DNA from: Sphyrna mokarran
Taxonomy: Eukaryota
Reading direction: 5' to 3'
Length of the DNA stretch: 64,000 nucleotides
NCBI GenBank assembly: GCA_024679065.1
Contig: JAGIQG010000010.1
Coordinates: 18,042,001 to 18,106,000, forward strand
Part shown: positions 10,686 through 59,645 of the stretch, one piece after another
How the letters are laid out: each line of letters opens with the position of its first letter
Numbering within the stretch: the stretch's first letter is position 1
The notes under the pieces: model-generated
What the model was told of the DNA's origin: nothing
Database searches by the model: none
What the model saw: the letters and a program-made list of their open reading frames with translations, nothing else
Translations under genes and position numbers: made by a program

Positions 10686-11090
10686 CATCATGCGGAGATG
10701 CCAGCGTTGTACTGGAGTAAACACAGTAAGAAGTCTAATAAACCAGGTTAAAGTCCAACCAATTTATTTGATAGTAATCCCACAAGCTTTTGGAAATGGT
10801 GTTCCTTTGTCAGGTATGTGGAAGGTTCTGATCAGAGAAGGGCATATAAAGTCACACTCAGTTTCCAAAACACTGATTAAAATGCAACTCTTTACAGCTA
10901 ACCTGCTATTCAAGTCTTAAAGATGCAGACAATGTGAGTAGAGATAGCATTAGCATAGGTTAAAGAGATGTGTGTTGTCTCCAGACTGGACAATAAGTGA
11001 GATTTTACAAGCTTAAGCAAGTCATGGGGGGTTACAGATAGTGCAACATGAACCCAAGATCCCGATTGAGACTGTTTTCATGTGAGCTGA
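10686..11090 (-). mobile_element. Penelope-like element 3' end (pLTR region)
   Basis: collinear with 12357-12672 and 58935-59220: ggagatgccagcgttg...aagaagtc...ggttaaagtccaac; degenerate hammerhead near 10780-10818. Confidence 0.8.
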
Positions 11091-11919
11091 AGTTCTTACA
11101 GAATGGCAGTTGCACACATTAAGAAAGGTCAACACTAAAGTGTATGGTTTTACCCACCAGATCTGAATGTACACAGAGCAAAATGTTAACAAATCTGCCA
11201 TCTATAATCCACAGATCTAAGTGTAGACAATTTTTTTTTCTTCTGGCCCCACATCAATACCAGCTAATATGTTGCGATATGTACTGGAGAGAACTTACAA
11301 CCCATATGCTAGATTTGCAATGCAATCTTGTAGTTGTACATGTAGGTTACACCTTGACAGTAGAATAACCACCCAAAATGCATGGCTCAGTCAAAAGGAG
11401 ATGTTTTCCTGAAGCATTTTCTGGCATTATACTTCGAGTTACAATATTTTTGAACAATGTATGGCTTGCAACATACTTTGTAGTCTGTGAGGCCCACTTT
11501 TTGCCAACAGAAAATATACTGATTAATCTTTTATATAAAAAAAATTCACTTTCATGGGTTTAAATTTTTTGATAATATCTCAGATGGAAACTGATTTGAA
11601 AGTTGTTCTCACAAGCACATTCTTGTCAGAACATTACTGGATCAAAAATACTCCTTCCACAAGCACTGTGTAATCAAAATCTATACCAGCTTCATAAAAT
11701 ATGAATGTACTTGTGAATGCAATATCTTAAAAATATAACAGTAACCAAAATAAATAAGCTAATTGAGGATATATTCTCTTGGCCAATTCTTTCAGACAGT
11801 AACTTCAGAATGACCAATTATCGAAGCAATAATGGGAAAAGGAGTAACTTGTTAGATTGTGCATAAAGAAATTGTGAGCTTCAGGATAAAATTAGCTTCA
11901 GATTGATCTTTGTGTATCA

Positions 11920-12356: not shown

Positions 12357-13749
12357 ACATGTGGTGATGCCGGCATTGGATGGGTAAAAACAGAAAGAAG
12401 TCTCAACGCCAGCTTAAAGTCCAACAAGTTTATTTGTAGCAAACGCCACAGGCTTTCGGATCACACTGTTCCTTCATCAGTTGGGTGGGAGTTCTGATCA
12501 CAAACAGGGCACAAAGATGCAAACTGAATTTACATAATGATTGGAATGTGAGTCTTTACAGCTAATCAATTCTTAAAGATACAATGTGAGTGGAGAGAGC
12601 TTTAAGCACAAGTTAAAAGGATATGTATTGTTTCCAGACAGGAAAGTTAGTGAGATTTTGCAAATCCAGGCATTTTCTTCCTTTGGACTCATGCTGAACA
12701 ATCACAGAAACAACTATATGATGACATCAACAAATCCCACCATTAAACTCACCATGAACTACTCCCCGGAATCGATTACATTCTTGGACACACACATCTC
12801 CATGAAGAACAGTCACCTCAGCACCTCACTGTACCACAATCTTACGGATAGCCTCACGATGCTTCATTTCTCCTGCTTCCACTTTAAACATGTTAAAGAA
12901 GCCATCCCCTACAGATAAGCCCTTTGTATACACAGGATCTGTTCAGATGAGGAGGATCACAACAGGGACCTCCAAAAGAACAGGATGTGATGCTCAGCTC
13001 ATTGATCAACAGTTCCAGCACGCCACAGTCAAAAACTGCACTGACCTCATTAGAAGACAAACACAAGCAGAGTACTCTTCGTTTCCAGTAGTTCCCTATA
13101 GAGGAGAGGCTGCAACACTTTCTCCGGAGCCTTCAACATGTCATTGATGAAGTTGAACATCTCGCCAAGGCCATCCCCACTCTCCCAATTCTTGCCTTCA
13201 AACAACCTCAAACAGACCATTGTCAGCAGCAAACTACCTGGCCTTTAGGGGAACAGTGACCATGACACCACACAATCCTGCAACAGCAACCTCTATAAGA
13301 CATGCTGGATCATCGACACAGATGCCATCTCACTTGAGAACATCATCTACCAGGTACACGGTAAAATATTCTTGCAACTCGGCCAACGTTGTCTACCTGA
13401 TACATTGCAGGAAAGGATGTCCTGAGGCATGGTACACTGGGGAGACCATGCAGATGTTACGACAATGGATGAATTAACACTGCTCGACAATCACCAGGCA
13501 AGACTGTTCCCTTCCTGTTGGAGAACACTTCAGCAGTCACAGGTATTTGGCCTCTGATCTTCGGGTAAGTATTCTCATAGGCGGCCTTCACGACACATTT
13601 CAGCGCAGAGTTGCTGAGCAGGGGCTGATAGCCAAGTTCTGCACATGTGAGAATGGCCTCAACTGGGATCTTGGGATCATGTCACACTATCTGTAACTTG
13701 CTTGGACTTGCAAAATCTTACTAACTTTCTTGTCTGGAAACAGTACACA
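12357..13749. mobile_element. Penelope-like retroelement, degraded: reverse 3' end (12357-12672) joined to forward RT C-terminus and GIY-YIG (12673-13749)
   Basis: PTIKLTMNYSPESITFLDTHIS (PLE RT), YSCNSANVVYLIHCRKGCPEAWYTGETMQMLRQWMN (GIY-YIG); 12621-12672 is the inverted copy of about 13698-13749; frameshifts and stops. Confidence 0.9.
13220..13477 (+). pseudogene. GIY-YIG endonuclease remnant of the Penelope-like element
   Basis: VVYLIHC...WYTGET..LRQ.MN matches the PLE GIY-YIG signature; frame disrupted. Confidence 0.85.
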
Positions 13750-31170: not shown

Positions 31171-31381
31171 GAAAGAAATCTCATAACACCAGCTTAAAGT
31201 CCAATAAGTTTATTTGTAGCAAACACCCCAAGCTTTCGGAACATGCTGTGGGAGAATCCCAGCCCACCTGACAAAGGGGTGTTTGCTACAATAAACTTGT
31301 TGGACTTTAAGTTGGTATTGTGAAATTTCTTTCTGTTTTACCCCAGTCCAACGCTGGCATCTCCACATTGTGATTACCATC
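31171..31381 (+). mobile_element. Penelope-derived mini fold-back insert
   Basis: inverted arms 31171-31229 / 31276-31333; 13-bp TSD aatccccttaacc (31158-31170, 31382-31394). Confidence 0.9.
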
Positions 31382-35060: not shown

Positions 35061-36374
35061 ATTGACTCAATGGAAGTATATATTATGAGTTTAAGAGCGT
35101 TGACTTGCCATGACATTCTATCTATTAATATAATGGATTAGAAATCATAGAAATGCCTAAAATGATCTCCTACCAAATCAGACTGCCTAATGGAAATATG
35201 ATATATTGTGAATGTTGGAAGCATTGTGAAAGAAAGGCAATCTGTGAGTGAGTCATGATCATTTAGAGATCGAAATTCTGCATTGACAAGTTTGGGCTGC
35301 ACTTCTTGGGCATTTCACATATTGTCCTTGCTTGATGACTTCCTCATTACTGTGGCTGTATGGGTACCACCCCAGCCTTTATCCCCCCATTCTGCACAGG
35401 GGATTAGAATTTTTAAATCAACATACTTAAGATTGAAATTGACACACTTTCAACCTCTTAGGGAATTAAAGGATTTGGAGAATGAGTGGGAAAATGGAAT
35501 TAAAGAACAAGTCAACCATGATCATACTGAATGATGAAGTAGGCTCAAGTGGTCTTGTTCTGCTCCTATTACTTATGTTCTTATGCTCCTTGGAGGTAGA
35601 ACTAGAGGTGCTGCAAAGATCTCTGATTCTAACTATATACATTCTCTACCAGTTGAAAAATATGCTTGGCAATGCATTGAGTTTGAATTTGGAACTCAGT
35701 TACCACTTGTTTCGTTCTTCTGTCACATGCTCTATTTTAGTGTGGGAAACTCCTCTTTTATAAGAATTTCAACAACATCTGTTTGCTTTTGCCTAACATC
35801 GACACAGTGAATCATGCCAGGTATATGATTTGGTTGAGTGTTACATTCATCGAAAATTGAGAGGTATTGAACTTAGTGCAGATTGTTCCTTGGTTTTGTT
35901 TCTTCACTACCTCTGAGAACAGCTTCAACACCCTCTTAAATATTTGTTCGTGTAAAGATCCTGGAGAGATTATCATATTCATGTTCAACTGCACAGAAAA
36001 AGGCATCCAAATCCAATGGTCCCGTTACAAAGGATCTCCTTGATGTCATTAGATTGAGTAAATGCTGTTGCAACCTGTATGACAAAGGAATCATACTGAA
36101 GTATAGAGATTTTACAGCACACAAATAGGCTATTCAGCCCCAAACTTGTCCGTGCAGAATTTCGGTCTCTAAATGATTATGACTCACTCACAGATTGTGT
36201 TTCTTTTACAATGCTTGCAACATCCACAATATATCATATTCCCATTAGGCAGTCGGACTTGGCAGGAGCTCATTTTAGCCATTTCTATGATTTCTGATCC
36301 ATTATATTAATAGATAGAACATCATGGCAAATCAACGTTCTCAAACTCAGAAAATATACTTCCATTGAGTCAAT
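35061..36374. repeat. Long inverted repeat, arms 35061-35299 and 36135-36374
   Basis: attgactcaatggaagtata...gaaattctgca is the reverse complement of tgcagaattt...atacttccattgagtcaat, with scattered substitutions. Confidence 0.95.
35428..35585 (+). mobile_element. CR1 3' end
   Basis: agggaattaaaggatttggag...gtcaaccatgatcatactgaatg...ctgctcctattacttatgttcttatg. Confidence 0.7.
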
Positions 36375-53247: not shown

Positions 53248-54699
53248 TCAACCTCCAGCGAGAATGGAAAATTTGGTACTCAGCCAAAGCAGGACTGGAG
53301 AAACTCAGCCACAGGCAAAGTTGGAGAATTCCAGCTCTAATTTCAGAAAGGAAAATTATTGTCTTCTATTTTAGTCCTTAAACTGAATGGCATTTCCATG
53401 CTTTCTGTTTTGCTAGTTCATTTATTCCTTCCTTTAAAAGGAAACGATTGACATATCAAGTCAAACATTGCCTACATGAGGTATTTTCTATAATAGATTT
53501 GCAAGAACAAATTTGGATAACATGGCCAACTAAACTGTGTGACTGGTTAACCCAGCAGTAAACCTGATGAGCTGATGGCTTGATTTACTGATTAGGCCTT
53601 CCATTGTACAGCTCATGTGAGTAATGCTGGGTTCCTAATGATGCTGGCACAATCTGCTGTTAGCTAGAAAAGTCAGCATCTAGGGAAGGATGAATGCAAA
53701 GAAATCTACATTAGATTTCCATGGAACATGGAATAACAGAAATGCGAATATTGCTACGATGGCTTACATTTTTAGAATTTAGAATCTAATGCCTGATTTG
53801 AACTGCGAGTTGATAAGAATGTAATAGATGCAACTCTGTTATCAGTATCTGGGATCATACGGAAGTCGTTCATACCAGGGTCCATAAATGCATATGTCAT
53901 ATGAATATATAATATATGCATAAATATATTTGGCTGCTTATGTATTTTTCTATTAGCTAAAAATTGACAGAAAATGCAATTAAATCAAAAATCATTACAG
54001 CAAGAGGCTATCGTGTTGAAAACTTTAATGTATTTTGTATGCAATTCTTCAGTGATACTGTTGCATTGCAATCATATTGGACCCCAGAGCAAAATGGAGA
54101 AATAATGTTTGGTTAATTATTAAAACATTAAATATGGAAATCATGCATGAGGGAAATCAGGGAATGGCAAAAATAGATTAGGACTGTGCTTCACATTCAC
54201 TGAACCTGTTTCTCTATCCTTTATGCTTGCACTGTAGGTCAGACCCTAAAGCACTGACACGTGTTTGATGCCTGGAGTTTGTATTTGATTGTGATTACAC
54301 AAAGAAAATTAAAATGAAAGCTTAATGTAATCAAGCATTTTGTTGTTTACTAGAGTGTTACTCCAAAGAATTTGCAATATTTACTAACAAAATCAACAAT
54401 TAACCACTTGTTGCTCTATCCAGAAGTTTTAGAGTTGCAGTGAGAGCTTCACCTGGAGCCTCAATAAAGAATCACAAAAGTATCATAGAATTATAGGGTC
54501 ATACAGCGCAGAAGGGGCCCTTCAGCCCATCGGACCTACACTTAATTGTCTCCCCTAAGGCCCCATCCCATTCAGATGCCACCCCGGCACGGTCCCATAC
54601 ATGAAGGGCACTACGTGTGTGAAAAGCTGACAGTGTCACACTGTAAGAAGTCTCACAACACCAGGTTAAAATCCAACAGGTTTATTTGGTAACAAACGC

Positions 54700-54738
54700 C
54701 ACTAGCTTTCGGAGAGCTAGCTGCTCCTTCATCAGTTG
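54700..54738 (-). ncRNA. Minimal hammerhead motif, antisense arm
   Basis: caa-CTGATGA-a-ggag..ctcc-GAAA-gc-TA-gtg; mismatch in stem I. Confidence 0.55.
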
Positions 54739-54960
54739 AGTGGGAGATCTTTTCACAAACAGAGCGTGTAGAGACACAAACTCAATTTACAGAATACTGA
54801 TTGAAAAGTGAGTCTTTACAGCTAAACAAGTCTTAAATGCTCTTTCCACTTACATTGTACCTTTAAGACTTGACTAGCTGTAAAAACTCACCTTTCAATC
54901 ATTATTCTGTAAATTGAGTTTGTGCCTTCATATGTCCTGTTTGTGAAAAGATCTCCCACT

Positions 54961-54995
54961 CACCTGATGAAGGAGCAATGCTCCGAAAGCTAGTG
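54961..54995 (+). ncRNA. Minimal type I hammerhead ribozyme motif
   Basis: cac-CTGATGA-a-ggagc-aat-gctcc-GAAA-gc-TA-gtg: intact core, 5-bp stem II, palindromic AGCT in place of stem III, stem I cac/gtg. Confidence 0.75.
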
Positions 54996-56246
54996 GTGTT
55001 TACTACCAAATAAACCTGTTGGACTTTAAGCTGGTGTTGTGAAACATCTTATTGTGTTTACCCCAGTCCAATGCCGGCATTTCCACATCATGTGTCAGAC
55101 TGCACAGTGGTCAGTGCCAGGGTGCCTTGCTGGTACTGGGAGGTTAACATTGCCCAAGAGGCACTGTTTCCAAACTCCTGAGGAGCCCCCAGTGGTGACC
55201 TGTTGATGGTGACCATACGTAATCCTTTTCAGTGAGGACTTCCACCGACACAGCCACAAAGGCAAGTGAGCCCAGACAATTGCATTCCATACTCACTAAT
55301 AATAGTTAAATCATTGTTTGAATTGATTTAAATATTAATTTCACCAGATATCTGGTCTGGTAAGATTAATAGAGGCAAGCAATTAGGTGCAAAACTGATA
55401 TTTTGCTCTTTCGTGATCTCACTGGATTACCTGTCCATTGACCAATAGGATGAGAAATCACTCCCTGAATTTCTGATAAACCGTTAAAAATGTTCATTAT
55501 TGCAACTGTTTTGAAGATATATAAATTATAAATATTGCAGTGCAATAAGGGACTTAAAGGCGGAGGGATGTAATTGTTGGCCCCCTTAATAGGCATCATT
55601 GGAAGGATCATGTAACCCAGTTGCCCAATGGTGAACGAGAGAGGGGATCTCAGGTCAGAGCATGGTCTTTTGCAGCCAGATTGATCTGAGAGCTGAGAAT
55701 GAACACATTAATTATCGCACCCTGTACATAGCTGTAAATAGTGATAAACCTATCATTGTTTGATAACTATCTGGTGGCTGCTAATTATTGCATTTACTAC
55801 AAAAATAGTTGCCTCACAACATTTTGTGAACTGAGAAACATGCATTATTGCCCACATTACTTCCATAAATTAAAATTTATAAAATGTTGATTTGCTTCAA
55901 TGCAGAATTTCTTATTTTAAAACTAAAGTTGAGATTTTTGTAAAATCTTTGTCGAGACAAAATGCATTACACCCAAAAATAAGCGAGGTATTTCTCAAAG
56001 CTTCTATCAGTTTCCACTGCCATATCCGTGCGCCCGGCGAGAGTCATCACTTTTGCTTTTATCTATGCTGGTACTTTGCCAGGTGATGGTAATGTCCACA
56101 AGCATGTCCTTTTTCACTTGTGCATTCATCTACCCTCTGCATGTCAAATGCTAAACACATTTCCCCAAGTCCAACTGATAGTTGTTTGAGAAATTTAAGT
56201 GGGGCTATTACAGCGTAAAGTTTCCACCGTGCAATTTTACGAGACC

Positions 56247-58834: not shown

Positions 58835-58932
58835 CTTCTTAGTCAATCCCTTGGGAACGAAGGTGACTTGTTTTCACTCCGGTTTTAAGGTGGTTGATGA
58901 ATCCATTGTAGAATCTGCAGGTTCTGCCACAC
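58835..58932 (-). mobile_element. RTE-type LINE 3' end fragment
   Basis: tagtcaatcccttgggaacgaaggtgacttg...ttgatgaatcc...tctgcaggttctgccaca; family recalled from memory. Confidence 0.4.
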
Positions 58933-58934
58933 AC

Positions 58935-59645
58935 CTCAAGCTTTCGGAGCACTGCCCCTTCATCAGATGAGTGGGAGTTGTGCCCGCAAACGGGGCATAT
59001 AAAGACACAAATTCAATTTACAAGAGATTTTACAGGTAATCAAGTCTTAAAGGTGCAGACAATGTGAGTGGAGAGAGGGTTAAGCACAAATTAAAGAGAT
59101 GTGTATTGTCTCCCGCCAGGACAGTTAGTGAGATTTTGCAAGCCCAAGCAAATCATTGGGGTTACAGATAGCATGACATGAACCCAAGATCCCAATTGAG
59201 GTCGTCCTCATGTGTCTGGAACTTGGCTCTATCAGTTTCTGCTCTGCGATTCTGCATTGTTGTGTGTTGCGAAGGTCTGTGAAGATCAGAAGCTGAATGC
59301 CCGTTACTGCTGAACCGTTCCCTGACTGGAAGGGAACACTTCTGCCTGATGACTGTTGATCAATGTTAATTCACCTGTTGTTGTAGCATCTGCATGGTTT
59401 CACCAATGTACCATGCCTCGGGACATCCCTTCCTGCAGTGTATCAGGAAGACAACATTGGCCGAGTTGCAAGATTATGTATTGTGTACCTGGTGGATGTT
59501 GTTCTCATGTGAGATGATGGCATCTGTGTCAATGATCTGGCACGTCTTGCAGAGGTTGCTAAGTTAGAGTTGTGTGGTACTGTGGTTGCTGTTCGTTGAA
59601 GGCTGGGTAGTTTGCTGCAGACAATAGTCTGTTTGAGGTTGTGTT
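58935..59645 (-). mobile_element. Penelope-like element fragment (GIY-YIG and 3' UTR up to the hammerhead)
   Basis: reverse complement of about 13200-13749 continuing into the pLTR; hammerhead core ctgatga-a-ggggc-agt-gctcc-gaaa-gc-tt at 58938-58966. Confidence 0.9.

Follow-up and report, generated by a model that had tools for sequence, protein, structure and literature searches.

Insertions of Penelope-like elements (PLEs) have been described as units with an inverted 5'-truncated copy, a tail of 30-40 bp at one end and a target-site duplication (TSD) of 9-10 bp (PMC8557442, PMC3846280), and the same layout appears in PMC2377424 and PMC8969392. The formation of the inverted copies is presented as an open question in PMC8557442. 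In vitro, a Penelope-like protein was reported to cleave and extend both strands and to start synthesis at two internal sites bracketing the tail (PMC11167929). That work concerned a different clade (Poseidon), and it did not show two cDNAs being joined. Single minimal hammerheads of PLEs are described as inactive and dimers as weak in PMC4209133, which also notes that in Schistosoma minimal hammerheads occur in pairs, separated by 100-700 bp and located on opposite strands, and attributes most such dispersed motifs to truncated PLEs.

The stretch of DNA analyzed here (64 kb, referred to as the window) contains a fold-back insert with hammerhead motifs at 54633-55102. A preliminary description had considered it either a stereotyped product of Penelope integration or a member of a replicating, retrozyme-like hairpin family. 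The insert is a dead, old, 5'-truncated Penelope-like insertion in an already described arrangement and does not represent a new kind of element.

Structure and parentage of the insert

The insert comprises 448 bases and forms, as DNA, a hairpin of two head-to-head arms with a hammerhead core in each. An inverted-repeat alignment of 54637/54644-54837 with 54862-55057 showed 173 identical columns out of 196, with 4 gap columns. This agrees with the preliminary description of a 448-bp non-coding insert with inverted arms, and no coding sequence is present, the whole insert being located 3' of the parent's stop codon. The features are as follows (positions in the window; profile positions refer to the profile introduced below):

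54633-54643: target-site duplication, left copy, 11 bp (10/11 match to 55092-55102)
54644-54837, minus strand: inverted tail-less copy of the element 3' end (profile 1134 to ~1323-1329)
54699-54739, minus strand: damaged minimal type I hammerhead motif; the core is intact, A-G replaces C-G as the first pair of stem I, and the loop of stem II has 4 additional nt
54836-54837: microhomology of 2 nt (AA) at the junction, or of as many as 5 nt (CTTAA) allowing for slippage of one A, from comparison with parent copies
54836-55091, plus strand: sense, tail-bearing, 5'-truncated copy of the element 3' end (profile ~1104-1363)
54838-54861, plus strand: spacer of 24 nt, the 5'-most part of the sense arm in the alignment to 16 longer copies
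54958, plus strand: position at which many other copies begin (profile 1230), a likely transcript start; the insert runs through it
54960-54996, plus strand: minimal type I hammerhead motif with all features given in the account of PMC4209133
55058-55091, plus strand: one-sided tail of 34 nt; the tail ends at the ORF start codon in full-length copies
55092-55102: target-site duplication, right copy, matching the left copy

The insert is composed of the last 255 nt of the parent unit (3' UTR and pLTR) plus 195 nt of the same sequence inverted and without the tail. Some details of the preliminary description had to be modified. The loop of about 24 nt has the reported length, but it is not foreign DNA; compared with the 16 longer copies it is 3' UTR of the element carrying a 4-bp deletion. 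The unpaired 3' extension, estimated at about 40 nt, is present on the sense arm only (~55058-55091) and measures 34 nt. The 11-bp repeats flanking the insert are likewise present, with one mismatch. The left TSD copy overlaps the arm start, whose position is ambiguous (54637-54644), and because the last 7 bases of this copy also resemble the arm, the left boundary of the insert is ambiguous. Since the arms have diverged by about 12%, the insert is old and likely to be inert. The 4-nt longer loop of stem II in the left arm (54716-54722) is absent from the right arm (54978-54980) and occurs also in the copies L034, L038, L040 and L041; either a later deletion or two templates would account for this difference.

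For the analysis of the parent element 19 copies matching the sense arm only, together with one further fold-back, were taken with their flanks. Upstream of the arm the sequence common to these copies runs 8 to 1,117 nt further, which corresponds to a continuum of 5' truncations. The longer copies reach an ORF with RT motifs, DKG, a CX4CxxC linker and then a C-terminal GIY-YIG domain, and the sense arm is 85-88% identical to the 3' ends of copies running on into the GIY-YIG ORF. A Pfam analysis of related, longer and younger copies identified RVT_1 above the cut-off (E 4e-9), and GIY-YIG with E 2e-4 and 21.8 bits, just below the cut-off of 22.6. These longer relatives show 97-99% identity among themselves and about 70-80% to the pLTR of the insert. 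In this younger subfamily, 11 of 25 copies holding the 5' end of the ORF have a same-strand pLTR directly in front of the ATG, where the tail terminates. The parent shows the features of an EN+ Penelope-like element: a single ORF with RT and C-terminal GIY-YIG, and a pLTR as partial tandem upstream. Judged by sequence, the two arms represent the 3' end of a Penelope-like element with RT and GIY-YIG, and the earlier identification as Penelope was correct. By the linker motif alone the parent would be assigned to Neptune or Nematis; in PMC8557442 a CX2-5CxxC motif between RT and endonuclease is given as a criterion for Neptune and is also found in Nematis.

The young subfamily (L111-L130, L211-L235; 97-99% identity) has a different pLTR, arms which are 96-100% identical and open stretches of up to 669 codons. 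Most of its long copies have an inverted arm, and the tail is located on the 5' inverted arm in some copies and on the 3' end in others. Three young copies, L228, L230 (~position 1360) and L222, start exactly at the ATG junction with no pLTR ahead; these exact unit-length 5' ends could reflect a circular or processed template. One Penelope copy with two inverted arms (L119) sits among tandem repeats of about 70 bp.

Further copies of the Penelope family were found in the window. [quoted passage not shown] A larger fold-back at 12358-13749 and beyond reaches the ORF, and two solo 3' fragments are located at 10688-11093 and 58927-59644. The window also contains a 236-nt inverted repeat (35061-35296 / 36139-36374; 90% complementary, 842 nt apart) with no long ORF and no match to the Penelope profile, possibly a non-autonomous DNA transposon.

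Breakpoints, tails and arm relationships of the fold-backs

Copies were compared on a profile built from 17 natural copies, with the hammerhead core word at 1236 and the end of the tail at 1363. On this profile the junction of the insert connects 1134 and ~1104. A first search of the genome (2.77 Gb) was ranked by score, and about 19 other fold-backs of 370-460 bp were top-ranked among the best 40 of 11,954 candidates. This result speaks for the reading that the insert belongs to a non-autonomous, retrozyme-like hairpin family, copied as a unit via its own RNA and possibly yielding dsRNA or small RNA, which we consider highly improbable. The similar size of the top matches was rejected as a sign of a family because ranking by score selects for size. 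According to the preliminary description many copies with an identical loop breakpoint would support such a family. None of the 19 closest look-alikes among these best 40 candidates has both breakpoints of the insert, the junction letters and TSDs differ as well, and none of 31 unselected fold-backs (see below) lies within 10 nt of its junction. An apparent clustering of BLAST starts of the look-alikes at reference positions 19-25 turned out to be an artefact of the 4-bp deletion in the insert, and mapping to the profile revealed different junctions.

The unselected sample consisted of 140 stretches of 10 kb each, taken at arbitrary round coordinates from large contigs (1.4 Mb). Sample and window together (1.46 Mb) contained 153 profile hits and 42 head-to-head pairs. 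The 3' region is reached by 135 hits; the end falls at 1325-1329 in 39 of them and at 1361-1363 in 55, and these counts comprise solo copies as well. The outer ends of the inverted arms of the insert and of the insert at 31173 map to profile positions 1329 and 1322, in line with the correspondence noticed in the preliminary description, and this common arm start is a family-wide second 3' end. Outside the window 39 pairs were found: 31 have one tailed and one tail-less arm and 8 have an eroded arm, and no fold-back with two tails or two tail-less arms was among these 39. The 8 pairs with an eroded arm were omitted from the counts that follow. Exactly one tail is present in all 31 intact unselected fold-backs, and the description as a stereotyped product of Penelope integration holds in this respect. 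A TSD of 8-18 bp (score at least 8) was detected for 20 of the 31, versus 2 of 186 mismatched flanks. Both arms agree within 3 nt in only 6 of 465 pairwise comparisons among the 31, all of them involving the 1230 region. The arms in the family measure between about 30 bp and 2,074 bp, and ORF sequence is frequently part of them, which also argues against a replicating hairpin family. Scaled from 31 fold-backs per 1.4 Mb, the genome would contain roughly 60,000 similar fold-backs (95% range ~42,000-87,000) if the sampled large contigs are typical.

With such a dense family, two unrelated insertions, or an assembly artefact, might in principle set two copies back to back. This is extremely improbable: both arms are located inside one TSD and abut with microhomology, an assembly mirror is excluded by the 12% divergence of the arms, and the 42 such pairs in 1.46 Mb obey the strict one-tail rule.

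The insert, with two head-to-head 3' ends identified as those of the parent, a 34-nt tail on one of them, an 11-bp duplication around them and a junction found in no other examined copy, was probably built once, at integration, most likely by the enzyme priming from both ends of a staggered cut. For this process the endonuclease would nick the two strands ~11 bp apart. One DNA end would prime reverse transcription at the end of the tail and the other one at a second site ~35 nt upstream, and both cDNAs would terminate early, after ~255 and ~195 nt. Joining of the cDNA 3' ends via 2-5 nt of microhomology, followed by fill-in, would then produce the palindrome together with the duplicated target. 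Two-ended priming with one cDNA per site agrees with the strict one-tail rule.

A one-off event with the same parent is also conceivable by self-priming: one cDNA (or an antisense template) would have folded back and copied its own end, and the second target end would have been joined 35 nt short of the tail. The version with an antisense template was proposed by Arkhipova and colleagues, and self-priming is the reading of junction palindromes published in PMC3846280. The tailed arm of the insert includes all of its tail-less arm, so that a fold-back copy of a single cDNA may also account for it, and the microhomology at the junction is in line with self-priming, too. The unselected fold-backs point in the other direction. 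In 22 of the 31 the inner end of the tail-less arm lies 7 nt or more 5' of that of the tailed arm; the tailed arm is the longer one in 6, and the remaining 3 show no difference or one of up to 2 nt in the opposite direction. Each arm of those 22 holds sequence missing from its partner, so that both must derive from a longer template; self-copying could leave at least 7 nt unique to each arm only with a later deletion. Furthermore, the tail-less site also ends solo copies. Self-priming is therefore regarded as unlikely, although a possible deletion of palindrome centres after insertion, which would secondarily create both unique junctions and asymmetry, counts against two-ended priming.

The relationship of the arms was analyzed with 23 fold-backs that have long enough arms, all of them selected loci from the score-ranked search. 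The closest sequence was the partner arm of the same locus in 14 of these 23, and the mean identity reached 0.878 for the two arms of one locus, compared with 0.829 for pairs of tail-less arms and 0.838 for a tail-less arm and a tailed arm of another locus. Partner arms have 129 minor alleles in common, versus 50 expected, as self-priming would also predict. The arms group by locus, which argues against a hairpin copied as a unit, since this predicts the opposite; the tail-less arms are no closer to each other than to tailed arms. For the insert itself two observations are at odds with the preferred origin by priming from both ends of the cut: its own partner arm ranks only 6th of 45 (0.870 versus 0.895 for an L002 arm), and its arms differ by the loop variant that marks other copies. 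A third one is that a search among the fetched loci revealed no match across the junction that would represent an empty target site lacking the insertion.

Hammerhead motifs and the recurrent start at profile position 1230

Rfam gave no match at the gathering score anywhere in the 64-kb window, and minimal hammerheads were then examined by hand. The core words CTGATGA / GAAA are located at 54964-54970 / 54985-54988 on the plus strand and at 54735-54729 / 54710-54707 on the minus strand, so that the preliminary assignment of a hammerhead core to each arm is right for the core words, but the minus-strand ribozyme has lost its first stem I pair. For the left motif in isolation no hammerhead fold was predicted. 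The right motif has a stem I of 4 bp, a stem II of 5 bp and an extra A before G10.1, a palindromic AGCU stands where stem III would be, and the predicted cut lies between 54992 and 54993. Both motifs are inherited from the pLTR of the parent.

Folded as RNA, the insert reached -268 kcal/mol (z = -29), and 0 of 100 shuffles were as good. The predicted cost of forming either ribozyme is 28-30 kcal/mol in the full hairpin versus 1.6-4.0 kcal/mol in a lone arm, and in the predicted fold the hairpin buries both of them. As there is one motif per strand, any transcript carries only one motif in sense. The opposite strands, which leave no transcript with two ribozymes in the same sense, and the modelled cost within the hairpin both argue against a retrozyme-like family.

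Among the 31 fold-backs the tail-less arm has its inner end at 1228-1237, just before the hammerhead, in 16 cases and the tailed arm in 6. Of 127 5' ends, 37 map to 1220-1239 and 3 to 1260-1269, the interval with the predicted ribozyme cut. Ribozyme cleavage was rejected as cause of the truncations because there is no pile-up at the cut site (3 of 127 ends versus 23 in 1230-1239). The base preceding position 1230 was analyzed by exact genome-wide counts of a 19-base word starting at the A of 1230, with the normal upstream bases absent; the intact upstream context of this word occurs 1,315 times. A G preceded the word in 454 of 712 cases and A or T in 258, whereas the same test one base further upstream gave 162 G and 368 A or T out of 530 (odds ratio 4.0, p 2e-31). 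Part of the G might stem from palindromic joints, and the matches with a GT prefix (192) were therefore removed from the G class as a bound, which leaves at least 262 of 520 (50%). A TATA-like word is located ~29 nt upstream of 1230.

An untemplated G at the 5' end is presented as an accepted mark of a copied cap in L1 and SVA in PMC4859970. By analogy, the G before the inner ends that pile up six bases ahead of the hammerhead core is likely to be a copied RNA cap. A splice junction at 1230 was rejected since the element has CCC and not AG before this position, and a G-bearing subfamily was rejected since the two bases further upstream vary among the matches listed. The younger subfamily runs counter to the cap: of 11 upstream pLTRs only 1 starts no more than 3 nt from the corresponding position, and 5 reach far beyond it in the upstream direction. 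Our literature search, limited largely to openly accessible papers and including PMC8557442 and PMC2377424, found no report on a cap-derived G in Penelope or on inverted structures of shark Neptune.

When both arms stop at 1230 a recurring junction arises, and one 22-base junction word is present in 81 exact copies. This shorter class with a recurring junction is what a hairpin family copied as a unit would be expected to contain, and within it the identity within a locus (0.832) is not above that between tail-less arms (0.831); overall the short set showed 0.82-0.83 within loci, 0.82-0.83 for tail-less pairs and 0.80 for tailed pairs, values that do not discriminate between the readings. Orientation and variants were scored instead, in the first 24 of the 81 copies. 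The recurring short junction was formed repeatedly, because it occurs in either orientation relative to the tail (10 and 10 of 20 scorable) and because in 9 of 10 scorable loci (3.5 expected, p 0.001) the two arms show the same one of its three variants. The interpretation of the insert as a retrozyme or as part of a replicating hairpin family is not supported. In 1 of 10 scorable short fold-backs the two arms carry different variants, which speaks against self-priming. The short fold-backs L248 and L242 (centre ~1500) have arms of different subfamily variants; this would mean two RNA templates in one insertion.

Taking the fold-backs as a whole, the chances appear evenly balanced that the family represents a population-scale record of integration. 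Each fold-back would use two initiation sites once, and about half of the tail-less arms would stop at one base, six before the hammerhead core, after an untemplated G that corresponds to the 5' end of a capped transcript. Such arms would be 'strong-stop'-like cDNAs from the 5' pLTR, each linked to another cDNA whose priming took place at the opposite side of the cut, and the ribozyme cut site would define no end. The insert at 54633-55102 passes 1230 by ~100-125 nt on both arms and lies outside this class.

Comparison with known systems

Hairpins of this kind resemble ribozyme RNA genes or MITEs, which calls for caution in their annotation. The junctions of the family give countable predictions for the existing in vitro system, namely two-sided priming, one tail per insertion and a capped start just before the hammerhead.

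The insert shares head-to-head arms, a tail on one arm that overlaps the ORF start, variable arm size and a TSD (11 bp here, 9-10 bp in A. vaga, PMC3846280) with the EN+ Penelope insertion unit described for Adineta vaga Pen2a_Av (PMC3846280), in the scheme of PMC8557442 and for the Penelope element of D. virilis (PMC2377424). The inverted 5'-truncated copy is located at the 5' end, the 34-nt tail at one end only, and the TSD is short. Unlike the examples presented in these accounts, which are full-length or long and come without population counts of breakpoints, the insert has no ORF between its arms, and both arms are truncated within the 3' UTR. The parent resembles Neptune (or Nematis) in its RT, DKG, CX4CxxC linker and C-terminal GIY-YIG, the clade being placed by motifs only.

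The hammerheads correspond to the minimal hammerheads described for metazoan PLE pLTRs in PMC4209133 with respect to the core, the short stem I, the extra base before G10.1-C11.1 and the palindromic remnant of stem III. In contrast to that description, the left copy of the insert lacks the first stem I pair, and the hairpin is predicted to mask both copies. Non-LTR retrozymes (bioRxiv 10.64898/2026.07.22.740005; see also PMC7229834) are likewise described as short and non-coding, with a type I hammerhead, and derived from PLE pLTR sequence, but those of bioRxiv 10.64898/2026.07.22.740005 are reported as head-to-tail tandems with at least two ribozymes on the same strand. The arms of the insert stand head-to-head, each strand has a single ribozyme and the junction is unique; the insert has neither tandem hammerheads on the same strand nor a fixed unit present at many loci.

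In L1 twin priming the inverted part is upstream sequence, and the 3' part is not duplicated. The two arms of the insert, in contrast, represent one and the same 195-nt segment, and their starts are at fixed sites. The insert nevertheless has in common with L1 5' inversion by twin priming, as outlined in PMC4859970, an inverted 5' part, short homology at the junction, a single TSD and the likely use of both target ends as primers.
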